From Ignavibacteriota bacterium (lineage in GTDB: Bacteria; Bacteroidota; Ignavibacteria; UBA10030), in assembly GCA_963701295.1 (NCBI GenBank), contig OY969585.1:1696001-1760000 (forward strand): a stretch of DNA of 64,000 nt. The letters run 5' to 3'. The notes under the pieces were generated by a model that saw only the letters and a program-made list of their open reading frames with translations, did no database searches and was not told where the DNA came from. The stretch's first letter is position 1. Each line of letters opens with the position of its first letter. Below, one piece after another: positions 12,015-32,315 of the stretch. The translations under genes were made by a program, and so were the position numbers.

Positions 12015-12263
12015 TGACATTAATGGACAGTGATAAATACTAAATATAAGGAGACAAAAAAAAGAGAAATTCTATTAGACTATCGAGCCTTTTCACAAGG
12101 AGGCGAGCATCATTATTGATCCTGGCCCCGGACATCTCAATCATCGAATCAGCCATTACTCCCCCCCACTAACTTTAAGTCAACACTATGGAAAGGCAAT
12201 CTCGCATAGCTTAGTGCGATAGTTATCCCTCAATTATCCCTATAACAAAATATGGAGGTTGTC

Positions 12264-13580: not shown

Positions 13581-14452
13581 TCTTGATAATATGCAGAAGG
13601 TTTTCTCTTGAAAATATCGATGGTACATTATGTTCAGCGAGTATGATAGTCAGCTATTATATTCACGGAGTCGCTGATCGAGATCAGGTGTTTGCTCTCT
13701 ATAGTGATAAACCTCTTTGCTCTATACCATATATACAAATGTATGAAGTACATAAGAAATCCCTTCAGATTTTCATCGATGAAGATTTCTTCTTCAGAAT
13801 TTGCGCGTGAGCGCGTGTTACACATCATAGAAAAATCGATCCTGTGTTAAAGGAAATGCTTAATTTTTTGATCCTAAACGGATGAGATAAATAAAACGGC
13901 ATGCATACTGTCAAGTTCAAAAAATATTGTCTACATAGTTCCTATATCGGCCCGCAATTTAGATGTGCCTTTTATTCTGATACTCGCTTTGAAAAAATAA
14001 ATCACGAGTGGTTTTCATTTGGCCATCTCTATTGTGTAAAGAAATATGGTCCTCTTTTATTAATTTTTAATCTTTTTTAATTTTATGCTTGCAACTTGTT
14101 TGAATAAACCTTAATTATTAATAAAGAAGTGAAGCTCACTAATTAATTTATTGTGCAAGCGATAGATAAGTAAAACCTCATCGATCGTTTTAAGGGATTG
14201 GTAGGCGGAACACCGACCGAGTATCAGTTCCCTTCTTTAGAAATCCTAATTGGTGACCCCAATTTATAAAAATTGATCAGCATGCAAGTGCTATAGTATA
14301 TGGATACGAGTGAATCGTGAAATCTCAAAAACAAATACAGCTAGTGGTAGGATAAAACAGTGATCATAGTGATGTATGGATGACTCGCAAAGTGATTGTT
14401 TCTATGGGATTGTTCAAACACAAATTGTAGCTGGTCAATACTTTTATTTAAA

Positions 14453-14866
14453 ATGAAAAATCCATCAATCAAAATTTCTCTCTTTCATTGTTCAAACTCA
14501 ATTTCCCCCGAAGAAATAAATCAAATAAGTTCGCAATTGGGTGAATTTGAATTAAATACTATCAGTGTGCCATGTTCAGGGAAAATCGCTATTGAATATA
14601 TCTTAAAATCTATCGAGACGGGATCCGACACCGCGATACTTGCCGGCTGTATGACGGGTGAATGCAAATTACTTCAAGGCAATCTCCGTGCACGTAAACG
14701 AATAGACGCTATAAACGATCTTTTAAACGAAACAGGCATAGGAAGCGATCGCGTCTCGTTTATCCAAATCGATAATAAAAATAAAACCGAAAATAGTATA
14801 AATGAATTAACAAGTTGCATCCGGCAAATAATAAACGAACAAGAAAAAGTAACTGAAACATTCTAA
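14453..14866 (+). CDS. MvhD-like [2Fe-2S] protein, divergent copy
   Basis: FHCS, VPCSGKI, LAGCMTGECKLLQGN, LLNETGIGSDRV: the MvhD/FlpD pattern. Confidence 0.85.
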   Translation: MKNPSIKISLFHCSNSISPEEINQISSQLGEFELNTISVPCSGKIAIEYILKSIETGSDTAILAGCMTGECKLLQGNLRARKRIDAINDLLNETGIGSDRVSFIQIDNKNKTENSINELTSCIRQIINEQEKVTETF

Positions 14867-14875
14867 AACAATACA

Positions 14876-15766
14876 ATGGACAGCTTACTAGCAAAAAAAA
14901 TTGAAGAAGGGGATTTCATTATTACTGCCGAATATCTTGCAGGCACTAATATTGATTACGATCCTATCAATAAATCACAAATTCCAGGTGTGCTGGCGGT
15001 GAACGTAGCAGATAATCCGTATGGTCCTATTATATCAGGATTGGCATCGGCGATAAAATTAAAACAGGCAGGAATCGAGCCGATATACCAAATTGTTACC
15101 CGTGATCGCAATAGGATCGCTCTTCAATCCGATATCTTAGGTGCAGCGTCTCTGGGCATTAAAAATATATTATGCCTTTCTGGATATCATCAAAGCATAA
15201 CGGAAATTCCGCAATCGGCAAATGTGTACGATGTCGACTCTATTCAACTGATAGACCTTATAACAAGGATGAACAACGAAAGGGTTCTTCTCAACGGCAA
15301 AAAAATCGGCGGCGATTTTTCTATGCTTGTCGGTGCAGTTGCAAATCCTTATTTAAGGCCACTTGAACTTAATATTATGCGTTTGGCCAAAAAAATTAGG
15401 GCCGGGGCAAAATTCATACAGACACAGGGTGTCTTCAATACTACCGATTTTCATGAATGGTTAGACGCGGCATATCAGGAAGGTTTGACGGAGAAGGCCG
15501 CATTCATTGCAGGAATTTATCCGCTTGAAAGTTATGATGAAGCGATTAGTCTCCTGAAAAAACACACAGATTTTTACATACCCGAGTCGCATATCAATAG
15601 TATGAAAGATGCCGGCGGCCCTGCCGAACAAAAGAAAAGAGGCATCGCAATCTGTGTCGAAACGATCAATAAAATAAAGGAAATGAAGGGATTGAGCGGC
15701 ATCCATATCATTTCTGGCGGGAAAGAAGATATTATAAATGAAATCATTTCTGATGCCGGATTATAA
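14876..15766 (+). CDS. metF: Methylenetetrahydrofolate reductase-family (MetF-like) flavoprotein, atypical active site
   Basis: ITAE, NVADNP, TRDRNRIALQSDILGA, KKIRAGAKFIQTQ, GIHI. Has LSGYH in place of the usual LxGD. Confidence 0.85.
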   Translation: MDSLLAKKIEEGDFIITAEYLAGTNIDYDPINKSQIPGVLAVNVADNPYGPIISGLASAIKLKQAGIEPIYQIVTRDRNRIALQSDILGAASLGIKNILCLSGYHQSITEIPQSANVYDVDSIQLIDLITRMNNERVLLNGKKIGGDFSMLVGAVANPYLRPLELNIMRLAKKIRAGAKFIQTQGVFNTTDFHEWLDAAYQEGLTEKAAFIAGIYPLESYDEAISLLKKHTDFYIPESHINSMKDAGGPAEQKKRGIAICVETINKIKEMKGLSGIHIISGGKEDIINEIISDAGL

Positions 15767-15776
15767 TTAGTTACGT

Positions 15777-17177
15777 ATGCCTGAAAAATATCATATTAAA
15801 ACTAGCCACGTTTTACCCAGACTTCCCCGCATTGGGAAATGTGGAATTGTGGACTGGCGCGAAGACTGTGCACGATGCCATAACTGCGTAAAAAAAGCAT
15901 GCGTCTACGACAAATATCGGGAAGAGGGCACATTCATCAGGGATTTGGACGAAGTCCATGCACTCTATTATGAATGCATGGGATGTTTTTCTTGCGTCCA
16001 GAATTGTACGAAGAATTTATTAACGCTAGCCTTAAATTCAGAATATCAAAAACTCGGCAACGAATATTGGAAGCCGCAAATTTTGAGCACAACTTGGTTA
16101 GAGGCAGAAACGGGAAAAGTCCCAGTATCGGGCGCCGGTTACAGGGGCAAATTTTCAGGTCCCGGGTTCGATTCCATGTGGACCGATATGTCCGAAATTG
16201 TTCGCCCTACACGTGACGGTATTCACGGAAGAGAGTATATTAGTACATCCGTAGATATCGGGAAAAAACCTTCCTTCCTAAATTTTCAGAACAATGAGCT
16301 AGCAACAGTTCTTCCTCCTCTTATTTCTATTCCATTCCCTGTTGTTTTTGACGTGTCTTCCGAAAAACATGCGCTTCCCGTTCTTGAGCCTTGTATTATT
16401 GAGACTGCAAAACAAACAGGACTTATCGCTATTATCGATTCAAGGAAGTGGGAAACGATAAAACTGCCTCACAAAGAGGGCTATCTGAACAATATTGCCT
16501 TCTTTTTAAATCCGGATGGGCCGCAGATATCGAAAGAAATTCTCAATAAAACAAGGCTGGTGGAAATTCCGGACAATAAAAATATCGAGCAACGAATCGC
16601 ATCAATAAAGAAAAATCATCCCGGAATAATTATTGCCGTGCGGATATTCATGGATGAAAAAGTTGTAAAACGTGTCGATGAATTGTCAAGAATCGACATT
16701 GAAGCCGTTCATCTGATTGCCGACCTCAACGGCAATGAAATTAATTCAAACAATCCCCGATTCATGAAGGATATTGTCCGAGAAGTTCATGGATGCTTGA
16801 TAAAAAATGAAAAGAGGGATGAAATAACTCTCATTGCCGGAGGTGGAATCGGTTTATCCGAACATGTCGCTAAAGCTATTATATGCGGCGCCGATCTGGT
16901 TTCAATTAATCTGCCGCTGTTGATTGCAATCGAGTGCCGCTTGTGCGAAAGCTGCAAGCCCGGCAACTACTGTCCTGCAAAATTAGACACAGAAATCGAT
17001 TTGCAATACGGGGCCGCACGTATGACCAATTTAATTGGTGCATGGCATTGGCAATTAGTAGAACTAATGGGAGCAATGGGTATGCGAGAAGTGCGAAGAC
17101 TTCGCGGCGATGTTGGGCGCGCAATGTTTAAAGATGAAATTGAAGAAGAAATTTATGGGCCGATCTTTAGAAAATAA
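15777..17177 (+). CDS. Glutamate-synthase-related FMN-barrel protein with N-terminal ferredoxin, degenerate paralog
   Basis: CARCHNC...C and CMGCFSCVQNC; GPGFDS; IAGGGIG...AKAIICGAD; CRLCESC...CP; GAMGMREVRRLRG. MSFG and QGAKPG motifs are absent. Confidence 0.8.
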   Translation: MPEKYHIKTSHVLPRLPRIGKCGIVDWREDCARCHNCVKKACVYDKYREEGTFIRDLDEVHALYYECMGCFSCVQNCTKNLLTLALNSEYQKLGNEYWKPQILSTTWLEAETGKVPVSGAGYRGKFSGPGFDSMWTDMSEIVRPTRDGIHGREYISTSVDIGKKPSFLNFQNNELATVLPPLISIPFPVVFDVSSEKHALPVLEPCIIETAKQTGLIAIIDSRKWETIKLPHKEGYLNNIAFFLNPDGPQISKEILNKTRLVEIPDNKNIEQRIASIKKNHPGIIIAVRIFMDEKVVKRVDELSRIDIEAVHLIADLNGNEINSNNPRFMKDIVREVHGCLIKNEKRDEITLIAGGGIGLSEHVAKAIICGADLVSINLPLLIAIECRLCESCKPGNYCPAKLDTEIDLQYGAARMTNLIGAWHWQLVELMGAMGMREVRRLRGDVGRAMFKDEIEEEIYGPIFRK

Positions 17178-18726
17178 AATTGACCTGGAAAACGTACTCC
17201 CCGGCAACACTTTTAAAACCCGTGTTCCGCAAGTCGAGGTCGAAAAAAATATTAAACCGGCTCCTTCGAGGTACCGCAATGAAATCGCAAAATATCTCAT
17301 CTATCGTGATGAGGGAAAATGCACAATGTGCGGGACATGTGTAAAGACATGCACAAAGGGCGTTCATGTCCTGAAAAAAGGTTATAAGTTATTTGCTACT
17401 CCATTAAGCTATAAGTGCAATGGGTTCGTTTGCGAGAAGACCGAAAATTTTTGTGTCGCAAAATGCCCTAACGGTGCTTTAAGATTGAAAAAAAATCCGA
17501 TAATGGAAGTTATGGGAGATTACAGATGGACGTCGGACATGATTCTTGCAACATGGAGAATGGCCGAGACCGGAGATATTCTTCCTGAGGATTCCGATTT
17601 TGTATATGAGACCGGTGACTCCGGTGGAGGATTCGATAGAATTCGAATTGTGTTTCCTGACAAGCCCGCAACAGTCGACTCCGATGAAATTGATATCAGT
17701 CTTGAGCTGAACAGGAGAAACGATGGCAGGCCGAAGATAAAAATTGATGTGCCCTGGTATGGCGGAGGGATGTCATTCGGCTCTATAAGCAATGTCACCC
17801 AATTGTCGAAGGTCAGAGCAGCATCTGCATGGAATACTTTTTCCTGTTCCGGCGAGGGCGGTTACATGGAACGCCTGCGGCCGTATGACGACCATATGAT
17901 AACACAGGTTGCTACCGGACTTTTCGGTGTGAGAGAAGAAACAATACAAAGAGTTCCGATCGTCGAATTCAAATATGCTCAAGGCGCGAAACCCGGTTTA
18001 GGTGGCCACTTGCTGGGCACGAAGAATACTCCCGCTGTTGCAAAAATGCGAGAAGCTGTTCAGGGAATTCCATTATTCTCTCCGTTCCCCTTTCACAGTG
18101 TCTATTCAATCGAAGACCATATGAAACACATCGATTGGATAAAACATATAAATCCGAGAGCTCTGATCTCCACAAAGGTTTCTACTCCAACCGATGTAGA
18201 TATGGTTGCCGTTGGAAGTTATTATGCAGGCACGCACATAATACATATAGATGGAGGGTATGGAGGCACGGGAGCTGCTCCTGATATAGCCAAGAAGAAT
18301 ATTGCAATGCCTATAGACTACGCCATCCCGAAGGTTCATAATTTTCTTTCAGCAGAAGGTATCCGCGACGCCGTTGTATTGATAGCAAGCGGCGGTATAC
18401 GTAATTATTATGATATCGCGAAGGCGATTTGCCTCGGTGCCGACGGAGTTGTAATCGGAACTGCAGAATTGGTAGCACTGTGCTGCCTAAGATGCAGCAG
18501 ATGCGAAAGCGGCAAAGGCTGCCCAAGAGGTATTGCGACAACAAATCCGGAACTTGCAGCACAAGTTACTATTGAATGGGGAACGCAGCGTATCATCAAT
18601 CTTTACAACGCCTGGTCAATCGGATTAAAAAACATATTAAGACGCCTCGGCTTGAAAACCGTTAAAGAATTACGCGGAAGAACGGATTTGTTAATACATC
18701 TGGATATCTCGAAGAAGCAAAGTTAA
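17155..18726 (+). CDS. Glutamate synthase FMN-binding (synthase) subunit with N-terminal ferredoxin (archaeal/split type)
   Basis: GGMSFGS, SGEGG, QVATGLFGV, AQGAKPGLGGHL, SPFPFHSVYSIED, DGGYGGTGAAP, ASGGIR, CLRCSRCESGKGCPRGIAT. Start at 17155 is inferred. Confidence 0.9.
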   Translation: MGRSLENKIDLENVLPGNTFKTRVPQVEVEKNIKPAPSRYRNEIAKYLIYRDEGKCTMCGTCVKTCTKGVHVLKKGYKLFATPLSYKCNGFVCEKTENFCVAKCPNGALRLKKNPIMEVMGDYRWTSDMILATWRMAETGDILPEDSDFVYETGDSGGGFDRIRIVFPDKPATVDSDEIDISLELNRRNDGRPKIKIDVPWYGGGMSFGSISNVTQLSKVRAASAWNTFSCSGEGGYMERLRPYDDHMITQVATGLFGVREETIQRVPIVEFKYAQGAKPGLGGHLLGTKNTPAVAKMREAVQGIPLFSPFPFHSVYSIEDHMKHIDWIKHINPRALISTKVSTPTDVDMVAVGSYYAGTHIIHIDGGYGGTGAAPDIAKKNIAMPIDYAIPKVHNFLSAEGIRDAVVLIASGGIRNYYDIAKAICLGADGVVIGTAELVALCCLRCSRCESGKGCPRGIATTNPELAAQVTIEWGTQRIINLYNAWSIGLKNILRRLGLKTVKELRGRTDLLIHLDISKKQS

Positions 18727-18741
18727 CATCCATCAGAATTT

Positions 18742-21405
18742 ATGAATTCTAACAATGTTAAAAATATTCTTCAATCGAAAAGAAATCTAAATAAGACGCT
18801 TCAACTGCCTGATAAATCGAACGCAATGGAAGCTGAAGGCGGGTGCGGTGTTGTAGGATTTTGTTGCACCGAGCCGGTTCCGGGGAAGCATATTCACGAA
18901 CCTTCAAGATTGATGCATAACCGCGGCAACGGCAAAGGCGGCGGAATAGCAGCGGTTGGTTTTATTCCCGATCAATTAGGCGTATCAAGGGAAATGCTCG
19001 ACGATTGTTATATGCTCCATATTGCATATCTTGACCCTTCCGCTCGTCCCGATGTTGAAAAAAAATATGTTGATCCTGTGTTCGATATAAAAAAATCCGC
19101 TAAGCTCAATACGGTCGACGATTGGAAAAGTGTTCCCGGGCTTGAAGTCAAACCGCCCGATGTTTACCGATATTTCGTACGTGTTCAAGACAGCGTTCTA
19201 AGTAAATTTATATCTGAAAACACTTTTGCAAACATTGACCGGCGAGATGTTGAAGATGAGTTGGTCAACCAAAACAGTTTCAAACTTAACCATGAATTTT
19301 ATGTTGCTGCAAAAAAGCAGACGGCTTTTGTCATGTCGCATGGCCGTAATATTATGATCCTGAAAGTTGTCGGTTATGCTGAAGCGGTAACTCAATATTA
19401 TAAGATTGATGATCTTTGTGCTCATGTCTGGATTGCACATCAAAGGTATCCGACAAGAGGCCGGGTCTGGCATCCGGGCGGTGCCCATCCATTTACTGCA
19501 ATGAATATGGCGCTTGTACACAATGGCGATTTTGCAAATTATCATTCAGTAACGGAATATTTAAAACAGCGCAATATTTATCCACAGTTTATAACCGATA
19601 CAGAAGTGTCGGCACAGATGTTCGATTTGTTGTCGAGAATATACAAATATCCGGTAGAATATATAATAGAAGCATTAGCGCCAACGACAGAACTTGACTT
19701 TGACCGCCTGCCGAAGGAAAAGCGGGAAATCTACCGGGCAATTCAATCGACACATATGCACGGTTCCCCGGACGGGCCATGGTTCTTTATCATTGCACGT
19801 AATCTTATTGAGAACCGCAAATTCCAATTGCTGGGCATCACAGATACAGCAATGCTGAGACCGCAGGTCTTTGCATTTGTCGACGGCGAAGTTCAAGTCG
19901 GAATTATCGGCTCCGAAAAACAGGCAATTGATGCGACGCTTGAGAGTCTAGCAAAGAATGATAAACGAATTTGTCCAATTGCTGATAAATACTGGAATGC
20001 CAGAGGTGGGAGCTATTCCGACGGCGGAGCTTTTATGTTCGATATTGTTCCAGATAGTGAAGGCAAATACAGGCTGGAGTGTAAAGATAAATTCGGAACC
20101 CCGGTTGTAATAGCAGAAAAAATCGAAAGCTGTGATTTTACAAAAGAAATTCCGGATGCGACGAATAAGGAACAAATCGAAAAAATAATTAACGAATATG
20201 CTTCTGCGGGAAAATATATTTTTGAATTTGTCAGGGACAACATTCCGCAATGGTCATTCGACGATATCCGTATTGCATGTCGGGCTATGAGAGACCTCGG
20301 CAAAGACAGTGAATTCACATTATATACAATCAATACCCTGACTTTATTAAATGACAGGCATTATCAGACAGGTGATAAAAGACGGTCACACATTCTTCAA
20401 ATAATTCGGACCGAACTGAATTCATTATTCATGAATATTCCAAGGTTGCGTTCTGAAAATGATGAATCGTCTGAGTACCGCCTGTTCGATTTTGAAACAA
20501 GAAGCGAGCTGCGTGGACCAAAAGACAAAGAAAAAACACTGGTGATAAATTCGAAAAAATTTCCGCCGGAAGGCAATGAATGCGATGCGATGTATCTTGT
20601 CAGAGCTTACAAATTAGGTTGGAAGAATTTTATCCTCTTTCATTGCGCAGGCCAACGTTATGTCGGATGCGGTTTCGGACCCGAAACTCATGACCTGACA
20701 ATCGACATTTACGGGAGTTCCGGCGATTATCTTGGTTCCGGTATCGATGGAATGACTATAACCGTTCATGGCAACGCCCAGGACCAGTTAGGCCAGATAA
20801 TAAAGCAAGGAAAATTAGTTATTCATGGTGATGTCGGCCAAACATTTTTATACGGCGCCAAAGGAGGTTCTATATTTGTGAAAGGAAACGCCGCTGGCCG
20901 GCCAATGATTAATTCTGTCGGAAGGCCCAGGATTGTTATCAATGGCACAAGTCTCGATTTTCTCGGCGAATCATTTATGGCGGGCGATCCTCATAATAAA
21001 GGTGGGTTTGTGATCCTCAACGGTATGAAGTTTAATGAAGAAGGCCAAGTCGTACCTCTGCCGGAACCATATCCGGGAAGCAACCTTTTTTCTCTTGCAT
21101 CAGGAGGCGCAGCTTTTATTAGGGATCCTAAGCGGCAATTAATTACAGAACAGTTAAACGGCTGCATTTTTTCTCCCTTTACGGAAAAAGATTGGGAATT
21201 GATAGTACCATATCTGACGGAGAACGAAAAGCTCTTCGGAATTAAAGTAGATGATTTACTGACAGTAAATGGTAAAAAACTTAATCCGATGAAAGTTTAT
21301 CGCAAAGTTTCACCCAGTATCGAGGGCACTCCATCTACGCCTGAACAAGATGTTTATGGAGAAGAGGAGGAAGTCGATGAACTCGCCGAAGAAGTACTTG
21401 AATAA
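18742..21405 (+). CDS. Glutamate-synthase-related class II glutamine amidotransferase fused to a GXGXG beta-helix domain
   Basis: Propeptide then EGG|CGVVG (Ntn Cys); HNRG, AHQRYPT, AHPF, HNGDFAN, TDTE, DGPW, LRP; C-terminal GSSGDYLGSG..GNAQD..GDVG..YGAKGG repeats. Confidence 0.88.
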   Translation: MNSNNVKNILQSKRNLNKTLQLPDKSNAMEAEGGCGVVGFCCTEPVPGKHIHEPSRLMHNRGNGKGGGIAAVGFIPDQLGVSREMLDDCYMLHIAYLDPSARPDVEKKYVDPVFDIKKSAKLNTVDDWKSVPGLEVKPPDVYRYFVRVQDSVLSKFISENTFANIDRRDVEDELVNQNSFKLNHEFYVAAKKQTAFVMSHGRNIMILKVVGYAEAVTQYYKIDDLCAHVWIAHQRYPTRGRVWHPGGAHPFTAMNMALVHNGDFANYHSVTEYLKQRNIYPQFITDTEVSAQMFDLLSRIYKYPVEYIIEALAPTTELDFDRLPKEKREIYRAIQSTHMHGSPDGPWFFIIARNLIENRKFQLLGITDTAMLRPQVFAFVDGEVQVGIIGSEKQAIDATLESLAKNDKRICPIADKYWNARGGSYSDGGAFMFDIVPDSEGKYRLECKDKFGTPVVIAEKIESCDFTKEIPDATNKEQIEKIINEYASAGKYIFEFVRDNIPQWSFDDIRIACRAMRDLGKDSEFTLYTINTLTLLNDRHYQTGDKRRSHILQIIRTELNSLFMNIPRLRSENDESSEYRLFDFETRSELRGPKDKEKTLVINSKKFPPEGNECDAMYLVRAYKLGWKNFILFHCAGQRYVGCGFGPETHDLTIDIYGSSGDYLGSGIDGMTITVHGNAQDQLGQIIKQGKLVIHGDVGQTFLYGAKGGSIFVKGNAAGRPMINSVGRPRIVINGTSLDFLGESFMAGDPHNKGGFVILNGMKFNEEGQVVPLPEPYPGSNLFSLASGGAAFIRDPKRQLITEQLNGCIFSPFTEKDWELIVPYLTENEKLFGIKVDDLLTVNGKKLNPMKVYRKVSPSIEGTPSTPEQDVYGEEEEVDELAEEVLE

Positions 21406-21429
21406 TAAAAATATATTTTCGAAATAAAT

Positions 21430-21978
21430 ATGCCCATAGTCATTAGTAAAGAAAAGTCAGAAACTACTTTATTGCAGACTGTCAAGGAACAATCCGGCGT
21501 CGATATCTCTGGATGTCTGCAATGTAAAAAATGCACCAACGGCTGTCCGGTAACAGCGCTGGTTAAAGTACCTCCTTCGGAAATAATTAGAAGGCTGCAA
21601 TTGAACGCAGACGATTCGATCTTAAACAGCGATCTGGTATGGATGTGTGCTTCGTGTGAAACATGTTTTTCCCGTTGCCCGATGCAAATCGATATGGCAG
21701 CTGTTATGGATGCTCTGCGGATCATCTCGGTCAAGAAAAACGCATCCAAGCAGAAGGGCAATGTTCCACTATTTAACCGATGGTTTCTGAAAACAATTAA
21801 CATATTTGGCAGGACATATGATCTGGGAATGATTGCAGCTTATAAGATTGGAACTGCGAGCTATTTCCAGGACACGGATAAATTTCCAATGATGCTTCAA
21901 AAAAGGAAGATAGCGTTATTCCCGTCTTTCAAAGCCGATAAAAAATATGTAAAAAGAATATTCAAGAAAAAGAAGTAA
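21430..21978 (+). CDS. hdrC: Heterodisulfide reductase subunit C-like
   Basis: CLQCKKCTNGCP and WMCASCETCFSRCP; directly upstream of hdrB. Confidence 0.9.
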   Translation: MPIVISKEKSETTLLQTVKEQSGVDISGCLQCKKCTNGCPVTALVKVPPSEIIRRLQLNADDSILNSDLVWMCASCETCFSRCPMQIDMAAVMDALRIISVKKNASKQKGNVPLFNRWFLKTINIFGRTYDLGMIAAYKIGTASYFQDTDKFPMMLQKRKIALFPSFKADKKYVKRIFKKKK

Positions 21979-22047
21979 TGCAGACCCTTTCCCGGCTTTG
22001 TAGAATTTAAGAAAGTCCGGAAAAAAGTTTTGGAGAATTATAAGAAA

Positions 22048-22917
22048 ATGAAATATGCGTATTATCCTGGATGTTCGGCGGAGTCAACGGCACGCGACCA
22101 ATATATGTCGATTCGAGAAGTCTCGAAAGCTTTGGACATAGAATTGATTGAACCAAAGGGTTGGACTTGCTGCGGATCGACACCGGCTCACCACACAGAC
22201 AGAATTCTATCTTTTGCTCTTCCTGCAGCCAACCTGCTCATGGCCAAAAAAATGGGTCTCGATATGGTTGTATTTTGTGCAGCCTGCTATAACAGAATGA
22301 AAGTCGCCAATTATGAAATTCGAACAAACCTCAAAGTCAGAAAAGAAATATCGGATTCATTGGGAGAAGATTACGATGGTAGTGTGGATGTTCATCATTT
22401 TGTAGAAGTGCTTATCAAGGATATTGGAATTAAAAAGCTGCAGGAAATCTTCACACATTCGTTGGATGGATTAAAAGTGGTCAATTACTATGGCTGTCTG
22501 CTCGTACGGCCGCATAAAGCGACTAATTTTGACGATCCTGAAAATCCAATGATGATGGACAGCCTTGTTACGATCATGGGCGGCGAGAGCATCGATTGGC
22601 CCCATAAAGTTGAATGCTGCGGTGGAGGATTTGCTCTCACACGGACAGATATCGTCATCGAACTTTCCAACTCCATTTTGGGGATGGCAAAAGCAGCCGG
22701 AGCGCAATGTATGGCGGTAGCCTGTCCTATGTGCCAGGTAAATTTAGATTTAAGGCAAAGCGATATAAATAAAACAAAAGGCACAAACTATGATATCCCG
22801 ATTGTTTATATAACTCAGCTTGTGGGATTATGTTTAGGAGTTCCTCCCGAAAAGCTGGGTATGGATAAATGTATTGTCTCTCCAAAGCCGATTATTGAGG
22901 CTGTAATAAGCAATTAA
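22048..22917 (+). CDS. hdrB: Heterodisulfide reductase subunit B-like (two CCG domains)
   Basis: YYPGCS, WTCCGS, CAACY, YYGCLL, ECCGGG, ACPMCQ. Confidence 0.92.
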   Translation: MKYAYYPGCSAESTARDQYMSIREVSKALDIELIEPKGWTCCGSTPAHHTDRILSFALPAANLLMAKKMGLDMVVFCAACYNRMKVANYEIRTNLKVRKEISDSLGEDYDGSVDVHHFVEVLIKDIGIKKLQEIFTHSLDGLKVVNYYGCLLVRPHKATNFDDPENPMMMDSLVTIMGGESIDWPHKVECCGGGFALTRTDIVIELSNSILGMAKAAGAQCMAVACPMCQVNLDLRQSDINKTKGTNYDIPIVYITQLVGLCLGVPPEKLGMDKCIVSPKPIIEAVISN

Positions 22918-22934
22918 CAAAGAAAGATTTATTC

Positions 22935-25900
22935 GTGAAGATTGAAAAGAAAAAGATGACAGGCGCTGTATTGGTTGAAGGCGGAGGTATTGCGGGTGTT
23001 CAGGCGTCTCTCGATCTTGCTAATTCAGGATACAAAGTCTACCTAGTAGACCGCTCTGCAGCTATCGGCGGTATGATGTCTCATCTCGATAAAACTTTTC
23101 CTACAGGCGATTGTGCAACATGTATCGTTTCGCCTAAACTGGTTGAATGTTCCAGAAATCTTAATATTGAAATTCTCACACTTTCGGAATTAGAAAAAAT
23201 TGAGGGGGAACCGGGGAATTTTAAAGTCACGGTAAAAAAATCACCGCGATACATCGATGAAAAAATCTGCAACGATTGTGGCGAATGCACAAAAGCATGC
23301 CCTGTCGATGTAAGCGATAAGTTTAACCGCGATCTTAGTACACGAAAAGCGATACAAAAGTATTATGCGCAGGCTGTTCCCAACAAACCTAATATATTGA
23401 AACTTGGACATTCACCCTGTAAAATAAAATGTCCGGCTCATATCAATGTTCAGGGATACATTCAATTAATCAAAAAGAAAGAATATCTCAAAGCCGTAAA
23501 TCTTATTCGTGAAAGAAATCCGCTTGCCGCTATATGCGGACGGATCTGCCCTGCTCCATGCGAGGCAGCCTGCACGCGCTCCAAAGTCGACAGCTCACTG
23601 GCCATCAGACAATTAAAAAGATTCGCATCCGATCAGGAAATAAAATTGTATAGATCCGGGAAGTTGACACTGCCCGAACAAAAGAATCCTCCTTCAGATG
23701 CCAAGAAAATCGCCATTGTAGGCGGCGGGCCAGCAGGATTAACTGCGGCAGGCGATTTAGCCGAAAAAGGATTCACTGTAACTATATATGAATCGAGGGA
23801 TTCTGCGGGAGGAATGCTTTATTGCGGGATTCCCCGATATAGACTTCCAAAAGATATACTTGATTATGAAATAGAGTTAATAAAACGTAAGGGCGTTCAA
23901 ATTATTCTGAATTGTACTATCGGTAAGGACAAAGTTTTTTCAGAATTGAAAAAAGAAAATAGTGCAGTGTTTATCAGTGCCGGTGCGCATATCAGCAGAA
24001 AATTAGGCATAAGTGGCGAAGATAAAAAAGGTGTGAACTATGGGGTAGAATTCCTCAGGCAGGCAGCGAACGAAAAGAACATGCCGCAGGTCAAGGAAAA
24101 TGTTGTGGTTATCGGTGGAGGAAATGTCGCAGTTGATGTAGCCAGAACAGCACTGAGACTTGGCGCTAACAGAGTTGAACTCATCTCGCTCGAGCAGCGC
24201 AATGAAATGCCTGCATATAAAGATGAGATTAAGGCAACCCTCGAGGAAGGGATTGTGATACGAAACGGATGGGGTCCGAAACAAATACTCGGCAATGGAT
24301 CTGTTACAGGAATAGAACTGAAACAATGTATTTCCGTATTCGATACAGACGGCAAGTTTAAACCGTCTTACGATGAAAACAAAACTTCTACAATCGATAC
24401 CGAGCAGGTAATTGTAGCTATCGGTCAAATGGTCGACGGCGATCTAACCAAGCACATCGGAATCGATATCGAACGCGGATGTTTCAAAGCAAATCCTGTC
24501 ACACTTGAAACTTCGATGGAAGGAATCTTTGCAGGCGGCGATAATGCATCCGGACCGGGTAGCGTCATAGAAGCTGTCGCCGCTGGAAAACGTGCCGCGG
24601 AATCGATCAGCCGCTATCTCAACCATGAAGATTTGCTGCCCGACCGGTTTGAACATTCGCTGAAACCATTTCCGGAAGAATTGCTCCCCTCTGCAAAGAG
24701 GGTCGCAAAAAAGAACCGTGCTTCAGCCGATGAACTTACAGTTGACAAACGCATAAATAATTTTAACGAGATTGAATATCCTTTTTCAGAAGAAGATGCA
24801 ATTGGGGAAGCTGAAAGGTGCTTGAACTGCGCTCAATGCTCTGAATGTATGGAATGTATTTCGGCGTGCGAAAAGAAAGCAGTCAATCACAGTATGAATG
24901 AGAAAAAAGTAGAATTGGAAGTAGGCGCAGTCATACTTACTACTGGCTTCGATGAATATGATGCAGAGCAAAAAGGAGAATACGGATTTAACCGCTATCA
25001 GAATGTTCTTACCAGTGTCCAATTTGAGCGAATGCTTTCCGCTGCAGGACCGTATCTCGGCCATGTTGTGCGCAGGGACAATGGCAAAGATGCAAAACGG
25101 ATAGCATGGATTCAATGCGTGGGTTCCCGCGATTCAAAATCCGGAAACGAATACTGCTCATCCATATGCTGTATGGCGACGACCAAACAAGCCATGATTG
25201 CTTCCGAGCATCTGAACGGGCTGCAGGGAACGATCTTTAACATGGATATCAGGGCGCATGGAAAAGATTTCGATCAGTATTATGAACGCGCGCGCGCAAT
25301 GAAGAATATCGAATATATTAAAAGCATGCCTTCTCGAATTATTGAGATGCCCGGTTCGAACGATTTGAGAATAACCTATGTAGATCCTGTACAAGGATAC
25401 ACGGAGAAGGAGTTTGATCTCGCAGTGTTGGCAGTCGGTCTGGATCCGAAAATTTCGGTTACTGAAAGTGCGCGCAAACTTGGAATTGAAATTAATGAAC
25501 ACGGGTTTTGCAAAACAGACAGGCTGTCGCCACTGGCTACCTCTAAACCAGGCGTATTTGTAGGAGGAGCGTTCCAGGAGCCAAAGGATATTCCTGAAAC
25601 AGTTATACAGGCAAGTGCTGCTGCTGCAATGGCGATGGAATTATTGTCGCCTTCACAAAATACATTAGTTACTTCAAGAGAATATCCGTACGAACATGAT
25701 GTTACCGATGAAAAGCCCAGAATAGGCGTATTTATTTGTCATTGCGGCATCAATATAGCAGGTACTGTCGATGTAGAAAAAGTAACGGAATCGATTAAGA
25801 GCGAACCCGGAGTCGTATTTGCTTCACATACGATGTATACTTGCTCCGATTCTAGTTTATCGAATATGAAAGAGCAAATAGCAAAGGACAGGTTAAATAG

Positions 25901-27392
25901 GATCGTCGTGGCTTCGTGTACTCCGAGAACACATGAGCCTATCTTCCGTGAAACCTTGAGGGAAGCGGGGCTTAATCCTTACTTATTTGAACTGGCAAAC
26001 ATCAGGGATCAATGTTCATGGGTGCATTCATCTGAACCTAAAAATGCAACTCTCAAAGCAGTCGAGCTTGTAAAGATGTCCATCTCGAGGGCATTCAGGC
26101 TCATGCCTCTTGAAGGAGAAAAAATTCCAATTCACCAGAATGCTGTTATCGTCGGAGGAGGCGTAAGCGGGATGTCCGCGGCATTATCGCTCGCCGAGCA
26201 AGGATATGATGTCGAGTTGATCGAAAAGTCTTCCCAGTTAGGCGGAAATTTGTCTCTTGTCCACTCTACTCTCGAAAACGAGAACATCGATAAGTTCAAA
26301 ACTGATCTTATTGAGAAAATCAGTACACATAGAAACATCGACTATCATCTGAATTCTACAGTTGAAAGCGTTACGGGTCATATTGGGGAATTTAAAATTA
26401 ATATTATGAAGGACGACAAACCGAAAGAATTTACCTGCGGGGCTATAATAATTGCAACAGGCGCAAGGCCCGCCGAGACAAAAGAATATACTTATGGAAC
26501 TATCAAAAATGTAAAAACACAAATAGAATTAGAGAGTTTGCTTAATAAAGGCAAAATTGAAAAAAGAGGCCAGACGTATGTGATGATCCAATGTGTGGGT
26601 TCGCGCAATTCGGAAAATCCATATTGCAGCAGAATTTGCTGTTCCATGGCGATCAAGAATGCATTAAGAATTAAAAGAGAAGATCCTGCTGCAAGCATTT
26701 ATGTCCTATACAGGGACATCAGAACGTATGGTTTTAGGGAAATATATTATAAGCATGCACGTGAAGCCAATGTGGTTTTCATAAGATATGATGAAAAGAA
26801 TCTGCCTGTCGTATCTGATGTGAACGGTGTGTTGAGTTCGGTGAAAGTGGAAAGTCCGGATTTTCCAGAACCTATTGTAATAGAAGCCGATCAGCTTATC
26901 CTAAGCACAGGAATAAAAGCCGAGAAGGACAATAAAGTCCTTTCAGATATGCTTAAGGTGCCGCTCAATGCGAACGGATTTTATGTTGAAGCCCACATGA
27001 AATTGAGGCCCGTGGATTTTGCTACAGAAGGATTGTTTGTATGCGGATTGGCCCATTCACCAAAAATGATAGACGAGAATATTTCACAGGCGAAAGCTGC
27101 CGCTGCTCGTGCTGCAACGATTTTATCAAAAACCCATTTGGAAGTAGGAGCACAGGTTTCGATTGTAAATCAAAATAAATGCATATCGTGTATGACATGT
27201 GTGAATGCCTGTCCGTATGGCGCTCCATACTGCAATTATAACCACAAAGCAGAAATTGAAAGAGCGAAGTGTATGGGCTGTGGAATATGCGCATCTGAAT
27301 GCCCTGCACGTGCAATTCAACTTAATCATTTCAAGTCAGTACATTTCAATGCCATGATAGACAATTTATTTCATGTAGAAGAAACCGTATAA
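22935..27392 (+). CDS. hdrA: Large HdrA-family flavoprotein (HdrL type): two HdrA modules with an inserted GltD/NfnB-like NAD(P)H oxidoreductase
   Basis: GGGIAG, DKTFPTGDCATC; insert CPAHINVQGY..ICGRICPAPCE, GGGPAG, GGGNVA; QCVGSR twice; CSSICC and CSRICC; IGVFICHCGINIAG, CTPRTHE, NIRDQCSWVH; C-terminal 2x[4Fe-4S]. Confidence 0.92.
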   Translation: MKIEKKKMTGAVLVEGGGIAGVQASLDLANSGYKVYLVDRSAAIGGMMSHLDKTFPTGDCATCIVSPKLVECSRNLNIEILTLSELEKIEGEPGNFKVTVKKSPRYIDEKICNDCGECTKACPVDVSDKFNRDLSTRKAIQKYYAQAVPNKPNILKLGHSPCKIKCPAHINVQGYIQLIKKKEYLKAVNLIRERNPLAAICGRICPAPCEAACTRSKVDSSLAIRQLKRFASDQEIKLYRSGKLTLPEQKNPPSDAKKIAIVGGGPAGLTAAGDLAEKGFTVTIYESRDSAGGMLYCGIPRYRLPKDILDYEIELIKRKGVQIILNCTIGKDKVFSELKKENSAVFISAGAHISRKLGISGEDKKGVNYGVEFLRQAANEKNMPQVKENVVVIGGGNVAVDVARTALRLGANRVELISLEQRNEMPAYKDEIKATLEEGIVIRNGWGPKQILGNGSVTGIELKQCISVFDTDGKFKPSYDENKTSTIDTEQVIVAIGQMVDGDLTKHIGIDIERGCFKANPVTLETSMEGIFAGGDNASGPGSVIEAVAAGKRAAESISRYLNHEDLLPDRFEHSLKPFPEELLPSAKRVAKKNRASADELTVDKRINNFNEIEYPFSEEDAIGEAERCLNCAQCSECMECISACEKKAVNHSMNEKKVELEVGAVILTTGFDEYDAEQKGEYGFNRYQNVLTSVQFERMLSAAGPYLGHVVRRDNGKDAKRIAWIQCVGSRDSKSGNEYCSSICCMATTKQAMIASEHLNGLQGTIFNMDIRAHGKDFDQYYERARAMKNIEYIKSMPSRIIEMPGSNDLRITYVDPVQGYTEKEFDLAVLAVGLDPKISVTESARKLGIEINEHGFCKTDRLSPLATSKPGVFVGGAFQEPKDIPETVIQASAAAAMAMELLSPSQNTLVTSREYPYEHDVTDEKPRIGVFICHCGINIAGTVDVEKVTESIKSEPGVVFASHTMYTCSDSSLSNMKEQIAKDRLNRIVVASCTPRTHEPIFRETLREAGLNPYLFELANIRDQCSWVHSSEPKNATLKAVELVKMSISRAFRLMPLEGEKIPIHQNAVIVGGGVSGMSAALSLAEQGYDVELIEKSSQLGGNLSLVHSTLENENIDKFKTDLIEKISTHRNIDYHLNSTVESVTGHIGEFKINIMKDDKPKEFTCGAIIIATGARPAETKEYTYGTIKNVKTQIELESLLNKGKIEKRGQTYVMIQCVGSRNSENPYCSRICCSMAIKNALRIKREDPAASIYVLYRDIRTYGFREIYYKHAREANVVFIRYDEKNLPVVSDVNGVLSSVKVESPDFPEPIVIEADQLILSTGIKAEKDNKVLSDMLKVPLNANGFYVEAHMKLRPVDFATEGLFVCGLAHSPKMIDENISQAKAAAARAATILSKTHLEVGAQVSIVNQNKCISCMTCVNACPYGAPYCNYNHKAEIERAKCMGCGICASECPARAIQLNHFKSVHFNAMIDNLFHVEETV

Positions 27393-27394
27393 AG

Positions 27395-27868
27395 ATGAAT
27401 GATAAGACTTTTGAACCGAAAATAATAGCCTTTTGCTGCCATTACTGTGCTTATGCATCGGCCGATTTGGCCGGTTCGATGCGGCTGCAATATCCATCAG
27501 GAGTGCGTATAATTCGTACACCCTGCACAGGTAGACTCGAAGTGGAATATTATATGAGAGCATTTGAAAACGGCGCCGATGGTGTTCTGGTAGCCGGCTG
27601 TCTTGAAGGCGGATGTCATTTTATAGAAGGAAATTTATTAGCTAAAAAGAGGGTCAGCGCTACCAGGGACATCCTTCAAGAAAGCGGTATTGAAAAAGAA
27701 CGCCTGCGAATGGTAAACATATCTGCAGCAATGGCTACTAATTTAGCAGCAGTCATCAACGAGATGGTAAACACAATTAAAGAACTCGGTCCCAATCCTA
27801 TTCGAAAGACAAATAACGGGCCGGAGGTTGAATATAAAGAATTTGAAATGCTTAAATCACAGCAATAA
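27395..27868 (+). CDS. mvhD: MvhD [2Fe-2S] protein
   Basis: AFCCHYCAYASADLAG, PCTGR, GADGVLVAGCLEGGCHF. Confidence 0.92.
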   Translation: MNDKTFEPKIIAFCCHYCAYASADLAGSMRLQYPSGVRIIRTPCTGRLEVEYYMRAFENGADGVLVAGCLEGGCHFIEGNLLAKKRVSATRDILQESGIEKERLRMVNISAAMATNLAAVINEMVNTIKELGPNPIRKTNNGPEVEYKEFEMLKSQQ

Positions 27869-27894
27869 ATTATTATGAACAAAATGGATTTACC

Positions 27895-28563
27895 ATGATA
27901 GTCGCTCAACGGAAAAAAATACCGGAAATATTTAATGTCATTCAAGAGCATAAAAATGTCTTGGTTCTCGGATGTGGCACGTGTGTTACTGTATGCCTTG
28001 CCGGGGGCGAACGTGAAGTTTCAATCATATCCTCGGCGCTCAGAATTGCATCTCGCAAAGCTGGTAAGAAAATTAAAGTCAACGAATTTACTATCGAACG
28101 CCAATGCGACAATGTTTTTATAGAAGGCGCTGCTGAAGAAATCAAAAATAACGATGCGGTCCTTTCATTAGGCTGCGGAGCAGGAGTACAGGCAATAGCG
28201 GAACGTTACCCCGATATGCCGGTATATGCAGGTCTTGATACTGCGTTTCTTGGTATACTCGAATCGAGAGGTGTATGGACGGAAAAATGCATGCAATGCG
28301 GGACTTGTGTTCTTTCTGATTTTGGCGGGATATGCCCGGTGACACGATGTGCAAAACACATGCTCAATGGTCCTTGCGGCGGCTCTCGTGAAGATAGATG
28401 TGAAATTAGGGCCGATCAACCATGCGCGTGGCAACTCATTTATAAGAGATTAAAGAATATCAATCAGTTAGATAAAATTGCTAAGGAGCATCCTATTAAG
28501 GATCGGAGCAAAAGCATTGATGGCGGTGTCCGAACAATTATTCGCGAGGATCACAGGATATGA
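27895..28563 (+). CDS. metV: MetV, methylene-THF reductase Fe-S/Zn small subunit (MTHFR_C domain)
   Basis: GCGTCVTVCLAGG, RQCD, GCGAGVQ, CMQCGTC, GICPVTRCAKHMLNGPCGG, PCAW. Confidence 0.9.
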   Translation: MIVAQRKKIPEIFNVIQEHKNVLVLGCGTCVTVCLAGGEREVSIISSALRIASRKAGKKIKVNEFTIERQCDNVFIEGAAEEIKNNDAVLSLGCGAGVQAIAERYPDMPVYAGLDTAFLGILESRGVWTEKCMQCGTCVLSDFGGICPVTRCAKHMLNGPCGGSREDRCEIRADQPCAWQLIYKRLKNINQLDKIAKEHPIKDRSKSIDGGVRTIIREDHRI

Positions 28564-28706: not shown

Positions 28707-29535
28707 TTATTGTAGAACGACATTAATAAAAAGACTATCGCTGGCAAACGCTGTAAATATACCTAACCCATTATTGACATTTGTCAGTGGTTCGTTGAGA
28801 CTTCGAGAATCCTGCTGCCGGGATTTATAGAGATTTACATATTCTTGATTTACCCGATAGACCGTTACTTTATATTTACCGGTATAACTGATATCCTGAT
28901 CAAAGACTCGATAATGATCTTCTGCGGTAGGTTCCGTTACAAACCGACGGTTGCGAAAGAAAGATATTGTATCCGATTGAAGCGCTTGACGGGTCGAGTC
29001 AACACTCTCGACAACCACATAATAAGGATCTGCAGCAGGATTACTCCAGGAAACAATTAACGAATCTGAAGACGTAATCGTTTCACGTGTTCCGCCATAT
29101 CGCGTAGTTACTGAGTCTGTCGTAAATGTCATAGTCGAAATGTTCGCGGATAAACCCTGCGGCTTCGGTGGCACAGTGGTCTGCGCTGTTGAGATCATTC
29201 CATTGTAGCTCACTTCAATTCTGTATTGGTCATTAGATCGAACGGAAAGATCGGTTCCTGCATAATAATATTTTCCAGTACCTCTGATTGGAAGGAGCCA
29301 ACTGATAGCTCGAATTATTTTTATAAAGGGTGACATTTGCTGTTGAAACTGGTGTGTTGACCGTATCGAAACTTGAAAGCGGCCTGCTTAACATAACAGT
29401 AATTTCCGTGACGGGTTCATTTGCATACAAATATGCTTGGAGCACAATCTGTTGACTCTCGGGAATGACAGGATTCTTCTCACAGCCCGAAACCACCAGG
29501 ATAAGCACGCAGAAAAGACGAATACTTTTTTTCAT
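28707..29535 (-). CDS. DUF4249-family lipoprotein; +1 frameshift near 29283
   Basis: Lipobox VSGC in ORF 29233..29565 joins GTGKYYY...EPLTNVNNGLGIFTAF in ORF 28707..29336. Confidence 0.8.
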
Positions 29536-29545
29536 GATCGTTCCC

Positions 29546-31966: not shown

Positions 31967-32003
31967 GGAATTCAATTCCTTATAGTAATAAATTGAATAA
32001 TAT

Positions 32004-32074
32004 ATAGACACAGGTGATACCAAAGGCCGGTTGTTCTTCCACCACGAAGTCGGCTTGTTCGTGCCTGTGTCTAT
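32004..32074. repeat. REP-like inverted repeat/hairpin
   Basis: 11-bp stem atagacacagg / cctgtgtctat enclosing further pairing. Confidence 0.5.
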
Positions 32075-32315
32075 TTGTGAGTAATGTGAACAAATGACTT
32101 TCACTTTCTACCATATCTTTTCAGCTGTCACATTTTCGTGTCTTCCCAGTGGAGCGCCTGGCGATATTCCATCGTTCCCACTGAATCCCCTTCCACGGCT
32201 TCTTTGGCATAGTACTGGTCCGATTCTTTCCCCTATTTCCTGCCTACAGTAGACTAGAAGATTTCGCTTGATGATATTAACCAGCAGAGTTTTGCCTGTC
32301 TTTCTATTGGAGGAA

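Follow-up and report, generated by a model that had tools for sequence, protein, structure and literature searches.

A ten-gene cluster from an Ignavibacteriota bacterium that brings together split glutamate synthase modules and a MetFV-HdrABC-MvhD-type gene set

Glutamate synthase (GltS) is the main gate through which ammonia enters biomass, and the donors known to supply its electrons are ferredoxin, reduced coenzyme F420 (F420H2), and, through GltD, NAD(P)H. Here, we describe a ten-gene cluster that, judged by its sequence, combines all modules of a glutamate synthase with the full Moorella-type MetFV-HdrABC-MvhD gene set. The cluster is located on contig OY969585.1 of the Ignavibacteriota bacterium assembly GCA_963701295.1, in a window of 64,000 nucleotides (nt; positions 1,696,001 to 1,760,000 of the forward strand) that is the whole stretch of DNA analysed and whose first letter is position 1 below. 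Open reading frame (ORF) calling and Pfam/NCBIfam searches place ten same-strand ORFs in one cluster at 14453-28563 (+), listed here with match E-values where these identify a family:

14453..14866, + strand: g1 (MvhD'), 137 amino acids (aa) from the ATG at 14453, a divergent MvhD/FlpD-type [2Fe-2S] adaptor (PF02662, 2.4e-21)
14876..15766, + strand: g2 (MetF'), 296 aa, a flavoprotein of the methylene-tetrahydrofolate reductase (MTHFR) fold (PF02219, 1.7e-24, above cut-off)
15777..17177, + strand: g3 (GltBx), 466 aa, a degenerate paralog of the GltS flavin mononucleotide (FMN) domain (Glu_synthase, 1.1e-12, C-terminal third only)
17110..18726, + strand: g4 (GltB2), 538 aa from the ATG at 17110, a ferredoxin (Fer4) domain followed by a complete Glu_synthase FMN domain (PF01645, 2.2e-85)
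18742..21405, + strand: g5, 887 aa, a fusion of a class-II, N-terminal nucleophile (Ntn) glutaminase with a GXGXG beta-helix
21430..21978, + strand: g6 (HdrC), 182 aa, 2x[4Fe-4S] (Pfam/NCBIfam)
22030..22917, + strand: g7 (HdrB), 295 aa, two CCG domains (Pfam/NCBIfam)
22935..27392, + strand: g8 (giant HdrA), 1485 aa, an HdrA-GltD/NfnB-HdrA fusion (Pfam/NCBIfam and Protein Data Bank [PDB] sequence matches)
27395..27868, + strand: g9 (MvhD), 157 aa, a canonical [2Fe-2S] adaptor (2.7e-49)
27895..28563, + strand: g10 (MetV), 222 aa, a Cys-rich MetF partner (PF12225 [DUF5981], 4.9e-35)

The genes are tightly packed. From g1 to g10, the spacings are 9, 10, -68, 15, 24, 51, 17, 2, and 26 nt, the negative value being the 68-nt overlap of g3 and g4, at which the start of g4 is ambiguous (17110, 17134, or 17155). 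Terminator-like sites in the operon are not enriched relative to shuffled sequences (14 found, 14.1 expected), and the neighbouring genes either end 870 nt upstream or lie on the opposite strand from 28707. A first-pass annotation, made from the letters of the window, had listed these same ten genes, and all were recovered in place and in the families it named. Its remark that hydrogenase and Wood-Ljungdahl genes are missing also holds (0 among the 26 other window ORFs of at least 150 aa), and the saccharolytic host of the Fibrobacteres-Chlorobi-Bacteroidetes group that it envisaged fits the remaining gene content: TonB receptors, glycoside hydrolases of families GH43 and GH3, a glucuronyl esterase, LacI regulators, and proteins with type IX secretion system (T9SS) tails.

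At the level of sequence, the Glt genes have the features of a glutamate synthase, namely an Ntn glutaminase, an FMN/2-oxoglutarate domain, and a GXGXG domain. The g4 protein aligns with residues 856-1170 of Azospirillum GltB and shares with it the motifs KxAQGAKPGxGG and GGTGA and the Fe-S Cys motif, which are retained in 63/65, 64/65, and 64/65 homologs, respectively. In g5, the motif GGC35GVVGF marks a putative catalytic Cys35 behind a pro-segment of about 34 residues that would be removed on maturation. The glutaminase motifs, which correspond to residues aligned with GlmS, are close to invariant: 70/72 have GGCG[VI] (the other two homologs are truncated at the N-terminus), and HxRxxTxG, VHNG, and TDTE are found in 72/72. 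Residues 638-805 of g5 form the GXGXG domain (PF01493, 1.4e-16), with FwdC and GltB C-terminal domains as the best PDB matches. The third member, g3, is only 23% identical to g4 (over 462 aa) and does not have the QGAKPG substrate motif; it carries two N-terminal CxxCxxCxxxC motifs (2x[4Fe-4S]) and a C-terminal CxxCxxC...CP, three Cys motifs in all. Its AlphaFold2 model (mean predicted local distance difference test score 59) is confident only at about residues 160-380, the TIM-barrel core, and the Foldseek matches of the model—generic TIM barrels of the inosine monophosphate dehydrogenase/FMN-oxidoreductase kind, with TM-scores of 0.3-0.5—add no more than the words 'TIM barrel'. We regard g3 as probably an electron-transfer or scaffold subunit.

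The Hdr part is dominated by g8. An HdrA start that binds flavin adenine dinucleotide (FAD; residues ~1-130) is interrupted by a GltD/NfnB-like NAD(P)H:FAD:2x[4Fe-4S] insert (~130-665), followed by the remainder of the first HdrA copy (~607-907) and a complete second HdrA (~926-1485) with a C-terminal 2x[4Fe-4S] ferredoxin domain. Matches to the HdrA structure 5odc (2.9e-168) fall into four stretches that span the two HdrA copies, and the insert, which carries both dinucleotide motifs, matches NfnA 9n5u over residues 160-641 (6.5e-100) and GltD 7mfm (2.2e-47). The motif GGG[ND]x[AG]xD is kept in 33/37 g8 homologs. The g8 protein is of the HdrL type, named after the heterodisulfide reductase/glutamate synthase fusion described from Desulfobacterium autotrophicum (PMC2702500). 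Together with the adaptor g9, its FAD and Fe-S domains provide the sequence features of an HdrA bifurcating module. Among the smaller proteins, HdrB has both CCG motifs in 34/35 homologs and MetV both Cys motifs in 52/52; MetV has no PDB match by sequence. The divergent adaptor g1 is 36% identical to g9 across 92 aa and retains four Cys (C13, C41, C66, and C71, invariant in 19 sequences), whereas the N-terminal CCxxC is lost.

We assessed the conservation of this arrangement on loci collected with g5, whose relatives made up 7630 of 8000 scored candidates. A contig scan confirmed 147 places, of which the best 80 were kept and 78 analysed, so that the counts below are not prevalences. The ten window proteins were placed on the 78 loci by tblastn, and the loci were then classified. 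For 44 of them, the contig reaches far enough to give a full view, with 5 kb or more on the upstream side of g5 and 7.5 kb or more on the downstream side; the other 34 are cut by contig ends. Four architectures emerge from the fully viewed loci. Type A, with HdrC, HdrB, and HdrL, accounts for 31/44, including 28 that have all ten genes in the order of the window. The latter belong to Bacteroidota/Ignavibacteriota, Planctomycetota (Sedimentisphaerales), and Thermodesulfobacteriota, among them Syntrophorhabdus and other deltaproteobacterial metagenome-assembled genomes (MAGs), and repetition of the same order in 28 of 44 loci is far beyond chance. The remaining type-A loci are L028 and L029, which are circularly permuted (hdrC-hdrB-hdrL-mvhD-metV-mvhD'-metF'-g3-g4, i.e. 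the Moorella order and then the glt genes), and L027, without g9 and g10. Type B (5/44; Acidobacteriota) has HdrL and no HdrBC; type C (6/44; Desulfobacterales, Dehalococcoidales, and Syntrophobacterales) has mvhD-metV-metF-g3-g4-g5 and no Hdr; and type D (2/44; L060 and L063) has only mvhD-g3-g4-g5, directly behind glnA. Hence, the Glt trio and MvhD are the constant part of the cluster, and the Met and Hdr parts vary. The first-pass annotation had suggested that related clusters may exist in other anaerobes, as they do, and would have been refuted had the gltB-like and hdr/met genes been unlinked in other genomes, which they are not; but its picture of a MetFV-Hdr module merged with a glutamate synthase has to be turned around.

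In a quick IQ-TREE phylogeny of g5 (72 rows), each architecture lies on one side of a branch, with SH-like approximate likelihood ratio test (SH-aLRT) supports of 100, 100, and 89; the label 'C' in this tree also takes in three type-D loci and thirteen loci lacking an architecture call. Within the phylum, the cluster is patchy. Among 301 evenly spread genomes, g5 was found at E<=1e-50 in six: the window's own, four of five other species of its genus, none of the nine further genera in its family, and a single genome from a different family (52% identity). This distribution (five of the six carriers being in one genus, counting the window) fits lateral acquisition by the genus, a possibility that the first-pass annotation had raised. 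The GC content of the operon is 0.38-0.45, like that of the rest of the window, and therefore gives no compositional sign of recent transfer. We also observed that L027, at 5.7-17.1 kb of a complete Bacteroidales chromosome, is trimmed, with an HdrL of only ~1000 aa and a gene of the formylglycine-generating enzyme (FGE)-sulfatase type where mvhD and metV are expected; it may be a decaying or remodelled version.

MetF' deserves separate treatment. By fold and family, it is an MTHFR, scoring 1.5e-51 against the MTHFR half of NF006396 (below that model's cut-off); in the PDB, it has by sequence only weak matches, to eukaryotic MTHFRs. The essential catalytic residues of the Escherichia coli enzyme are Glu28, Asp120, Gln183, and Phe223, the first three of which contact the pterin (PMC11868366). 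Our alignment set the cluster MetFs beside both further MTHFR homologs of the window's genome and 20 unlinked paralogs from five genomes; one paralog entry (L093) proved to be a wrong ORF and was dropped, leaving 19. The Asp120 column ('L[ST]GD') was assigned through alignment to ordinary MetFs, residue spacing, and a motif that we take to be the one surrounding this residue. In the window's protein, the columns that motif and spacing equate with Glu28 and Gln183 are unchanged, and Tyr104 stands at the putative Asp120 column. Type-A proteins have a residue other than Asp there in 35/35 cases (Y 27, F 6, H 2; L036, L038, and the truncated L013 and L035 included), and type-B proteins have Asn in 5/5, with Glu also lost in three. 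Asp is thus present in 0/40 Hdr-containing clusters, the window included, versus 17/17 Hdr-free (type-C) clusters, both ordinary MTHFR homologs of the window's genome, and 13 of the 19 unlinked paralogs; the six paralogs without it are among the nine weakest Pfam scorers, the other three of which (L099, L102, and L106) keep it. Since Asp is missing from every Hdr-containing cluster, MetF' is probably not a working folate reductase. In the MetF tree, types A and B group as a single clade (SH-aLRT 100, on a stem of length 0.49) next to the type-C and ordinary MetFs; the replacement therefore arose once, along with HdrL recruitment. The strict match of Hdr presence with loss of the MetF Asp is possibly a new point. 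As an observation in its own right, a 297-aa acetogen-type MetF elsewhere in the genome (L083, G000:C1:3580241-3584113; Asp kept) adjoins a 290-aa ORF that starts like a pterin-binding methyltransferase, which hints at corrinoid or methyl-transfer C1 metabolism despite the absence of an acetyl-CoA synthase gene.

Outside Bacteroidota, the wider genomic setting connects the cluster with nitrogen assimilation. The first-pass annotation had asked whether a separate canonical gltBD exists; the window's own complete genome does have a canonical gltB, next to which lies a gltD-like gene, and the cluster is therefore a second system there. Elsewhere, it may stand alone: among Hdr-free genomes, a GltB of ~1500 aa was found in 0/5 and the top-scoring Glu_synthase match is the g4 of the cluster in 4/5, and among type-A genomes, a canonical large GltB is present in 3/5 and missing from 2/5 (Syntrophorhabdus and a deltaproteobacterial MAG), counts that rest on MAGs of no stated completeness. 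A scan of 140 flanking ORFs recovered, outside Bacteroidota, glnA (L060, L063, L071), gdh (L032, L063), amt (L040, L079), glnE (L061), a glnD-like gene (L065), carA/carB (seven loci), purF-like genes (five), and NAD synthase genes (two). Sigma-54 activators flank the cluster in L047, L049, and L055. In 6/6 deltaproteobacterial/Syntrophorhabdus type-A loci (L036-L041, ~4.7-5.7 kb), a class-I glutamine amidotransferase gene (260-300 aa) lies directly 5' of mvhD' and is possibly an eleventh member of the operon.

Upstream of g1 are two conserved features:

14086..14125, + strand: candidate promoter region, a 40-nt block that is near-invariant in eight related loci and also occurs in the more distant L012
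14150..14275, + strand: candidate cis-regulatory 5' untranslated region, a conserved leader of ~125 nt with three predicted hairpins

Alignment of the leader (14150-14275) from eight close relatives yields 32-36 predicted pairs, two with compensatory change. A riboswitch search with Rfam over 13400-14600 gave no match at E<=1. A model of the leader (R1) found the operon's own copy as the sole one in the genome and, in 40 more distant loci, a single weak match (E 0.21) that is not credible. The leader appears to be specific to this clade and to carry no information on a ligand. In a peat metatranscriptome (one run, share 0.07, assembled contigs), 365 contigs match the operon at no less than 90% identity (26 at >=99%, 98 at 95-99%, and 241 at 90-95%). 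No bin of 14034-28451 is left uncovered, the mean word depth being 0.6-46, compared with 0.2-0.5 in the flanks, and one contig from the RNA library covers 14225-14284. From contigs, co-transcription across junctions and transcript ends are not readable; they are a hint that the operon or close relatives of it are transcribed in peat.

On this basis, we propose that the ten genes encode one Fe-S flavoprotein complex with a glutamine-dependent glutamate synthase core that is fed with NAD(P)H through the insert of g8, a reading to which we give about even chances. NAD(P)H would be oxidised at the GltD/NfnB-like insert, and its electrons would travel along the flavins and Fe-S clusters of HdrA; from there, both adaptors (g1 and g9), MetV, and g3, rich in Fe-S sites, would hand them on to g4, at its Fe-S cluster and FMN. 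Cys35 of g5 would free ammonia from glutamine, which with 2-oxoglutarate would give 2-iminoglutarate, to be reduced to glutamate at g4. MetF', having lost the putative Asp120, would be a flavin relay or scaffold, or would act on a new substrate; it probably does not reduce methylene-tetrahydrofolate (THF). In the window's own genome, which has the canonical gltBD, the complex would provide an auxiliary, energy-saving route.

The energetics invite a further step. NAD(P)H has a potential of about -320 mV, the 2-oxoglutarate + NH4+/glutamate couple one of about -130 mV, and ferredoxin one of -400 to -500 mV. With NAD(P)H as the donor, the reduction would be strongly exergonic, and for this reason the HdrA flavin may divide the electron pair and pass electrons to ferredoxin as well. 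For comparison, the potential given for methylene-THF is -200 mV (PMC5861303). Tentatively, then, the complex could be an electron-bifurcating glutamate synthase, in which 2-oxoglutarate amination is the high-potential branch, a second NAD(P)H pair goes to ferredoxin, and MetF' is a former folate reductase turned flavin relay; we consider this extension possible rather than probable. The family may hold two solutions, and for type C, in which MetF is intact and an NAD(P)H module is lacking, a genuine link to the methyl-/methylene-THF couple is the simplest reading.

Several points weigh against the proposed complex or its details. The association of ten proteins in one particle is something we infer from their genes. 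MetF', MetV, and HdrBC are conserved and yet have no assigned job, which leaves the model incomplete. In the Hdr-free forms, MetF keeps all catalytic residues and no NAD(P)H module is present; a different donor must therefore operate there, an argument for a role of folate chemistry in at least part of the family. The equation of Tyr104 with Asp120 follows from alignment, a presumed motif, and spacing rather than a structure, and the 6/19 unlinked paralogs without Asp indicate that its loss need not mean loss of all activity. Bacteroidota loci, including the window, have no nitrogen genes as neighbours in the flanking-ORF scan, and no sigma-54 site (TGGCACN5TTGCW, at most two mismatches) lies within 13581-14452, with 36 sites in the window compared with 30 expected. 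The RNA evidence is one run of contigs, mostly from relatives (241/365 at 90-95%), and the bare flanks may simply be unshared sequence. Finally, the loci were gathered through g5 as the best 80 of 147, which is why their counts cannot be taken as prevalences.

The alternative that survives best, although we consider it unlikely, couples the enzyme to folate: the methyl-/methylene-THF couple at MetF would be linked to glutamate synthesis or oxidation, with Hdr tuning the energetics (e.g. methyl-THF reducing the GltS, or glutamate reducing methylene-THF). Each of the three architectures that include metF has it immediately 5' of g3, and in the Hdr-free forms Glu, Asp, and Gln are all retained while no other input module exists. 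Acetyl-CoA synthase (AcsB) is present in 5/5 type-C genomes searched, the cluster MetF of the Dehalococcoidales genome G003 is the only strong MTHFR match there, and glyA lies downstream of the cluster in L063. An MTHFR working in the oxidative direction is documented (PMC11868366). For the window, however, the link to folate C1 chemistry contemplated by the first-pass annotation is weakened by the Tyr at the putative Asp120 column and by the genome itself, which has two ordinary MTHFRs and, over its 99.3%-complete single contig, no match to AcsB (PF03598); without that enzyme, the cluster does not belong to a Wood-Ljungdahl pathway. The Asp replacement extends to all 40 Hdr-containing clusters (and the loss of Glu to three of five from Acidobacteriota), and the two loci with MvhD and glt genes only manage without MetFV.

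It is quite unlikely, in our judgement, that the genes are merely co-transcribed and encode separate enzymes, a ferredoxin-type split GltS and a Moorella-like Hdr/MetFV enzyme, with no joint complex. The permuted loci L028 and L029, in which the Moorella order is followed by the glt genes, speak for this idea, and the ferredoxin-like domains of g3 and g4 could take electrons from free ferredoxin. It accounts poorly for the interleaved met-glt-hdr-met order of 28/44 fully viewed loci from several phyla, for the retention of MvhD, an adaptor without catalysis of its own, beside the glt genes of L060 and L063, which have neither Met nor Hdr, and for the change of MetF' in step with the arrival of Hdr.

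That the trio is no GltS but a relative with amidotransferase or imine reductase activity towards a different 2-oxo acid or amine (resembling MgsABC, or of another kind), with Hdr/MetFV serving that chemistry, strikes us as very unlikely. No NCBIfam equivalog model scores above its cut-off for g3, g4, or g5, there are two FMN-domain paralogs and an unusual fusion of glutaminase and GXGXG domains, and the genome already has gltBD; but g4 keeps the 2-oxoglutarate/FMN motifs of GltS, g5 has the full glutaminase set with its Ntn Cys, the neighbours elsewhere include glnA, amt, glnE, glnD, and carAB, and in several genomes g4 is the sole strong Glu_synthase gene. The methylamine reaction that had been suggested by analogy with MgsABC accordingly finds no support. 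Highly improbable, too, is a plain non-bifurcating chain with another donor (reduced ferredoxin, or a thiol/disulfide at HdrB) or a confurcation of two donors, for which the CCG motifs of HdrB (34/35), implying a working non-cubane cluster site, and the C-terminal ferredoxin domain of HdrA could speak, as against the complete GltD/NfnB-type NAD(P)H module inside g8 and an Acidobacteriota version entirely without HdrBC.

If the proposed complex is real, a glutamate synthase wired to HdrA, MvhD, and MetFV-type proteins would be a new enzyme class, and one carried by numerous uncultured anaerobes from peat, fens, sediments, and digesters. Should it also bifurcate, it would join the short list of flavin-based electron-bifurcating enzymes and tie nitrogen assimilation to energy conservation, with assimilation yielding low-potential reducing power in energy-starved cells. 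The natural series from MvhD only, through addition of MetVF and then HdrL, to addition of HdrBC could reveal how Hdr-type modules are recruited and could suggest the missing partner of the Moorella enzyme; the exchange of this Asp in MetF as Hdr was recruited offers a concrete, testable handle. What the present analysis adds is this four-step series, with counts from a single locus set, and the match between Hdr presence and loss of the MetF Asp. In the openly readable literature, we found no paper that describes the cluster or links MetFV or Hdr with split glutamate synthase genes, and the expectation of an uncharacterised flavin/Fe-S system tied to glutamate synthesis is supported.

The remainder of the window contains further features. 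The region 36702-63999 resembles a polysaccharide-utilisation locus, with two LacI regulators, a GH43 beta-xylosidase, a glucuronyl esterase, a GH3 enzyme, sugar transporters of the major facilitator superfamily, T9SS-tailed proteins with carbohydrate-binding module family 9 (CBM9) domains, and a TonB receptor; its content points to xylan or hemicellulose degradation. At 5980-8303 (-), a TonB-dependent receptor is apparently divided between two ORFs (plug/N-terminal part at 6813-8303, barrel end at 5980-6669), which may reflect a frameshift or pseudogene, and is followed by a DUF4249 gene; a similar, intact pair of a TonB receptor and DUF4249 occupies 28707-32104. Just before the long leader region of the operon, a 442-aa ORF (12252-13580, +) has no Pfam/NCBIfam match, and L005 has an unmatched 447-aa ORF in the corresponding place, on the opposite strand.

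The closest relative among known systems is the MetFV-HdrABC-MvhD methylene-THF reductase of Moorella thermoacetica, the source study of which is said to be that of Mock et al. in 2014. For this enzyme, NADH is given as the donor, and the second acceptor is marked '?' in the account consulted (PMC5861303; the complex is summarised also in PMC5736913, PMC7325909, and PMC6085437). Its genes are arranged hdrCBA-mvhD-metVF (PMC5736913), an order reproduced in L028 and L029, and its HdrA is a fused double HdrA, such double HdrAs and HdrA-NfnB fusions being discussed for Moorella and for anaerobic methanotrophic archaea (ANME) (PMC9012536). The operon shares with it the six clustered families MetF, MetV, HdrA, HdrB, HdrC, and MvhD and the double HdrA. 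It differs in the three glt genes and second MvhD interleaved among them, in the GltD/NfnB insert of HdrA, in a MetF' without the putative Asp120, and in a genome that has no acetyl-CoA synthase, so that a Wood-Ljungdahl role is absent.

HdrL of Desulfobacterium autotrophicum and the HdrA-NfnB fusions of ANME-1 resemble g8 in being large HdrAs with a GltS-small-subunit/NfnB-like NAD(P)H domain, followed by mvhD; they are described as standing beside dsr, fdh, or other genes and not beside genes for the GltS large subunit (PMC2702500, PMC9012536). As a further difference, no selenocysteine is seen in the operon. MgsABC has in common with the operon a GltB homolog that is split into glutaminase-like, GXGXG, and FMN subunits. 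Compared by description rather than with an Mgs reference sequence, the operon differs in a cluster context of nitrogen assimilation instead of methylamine use, in intact Ntn-Cys and GltS motifs, and in having no Mgs-type family match.

The split 'archaeal-type' glutamate synthase consists of separate glutaminase, ferredoxin-fused FMN, and GXGXG proteins. Like it, the operon has its domains on separate polypeptides and 2x[4Fe-4S] fused to the FMN domain; unlike it, the operon joins glutaminase and GXGXG in one protein of 887 aa, has a second FMN paralog, and always has MvhD alongside. All modules of the canonical enzymes, Azospirillum brasilense GltBD (PDB 1ea0/2vdc/6s6s) and its Bacillus counterpart (7mfm), recur in the operon, including the GltD-type NAD(P)H:FAD:2x[4Fe-4S] module. 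In the operon, however, they are spread over g3, g4, g5, and the insert of g8, with the GltD module embedded in HdrA, and are accompanied by a degenerate FMN paralog, extra ferredoxin domains, MvhD, MetF'V, and HdrBC.

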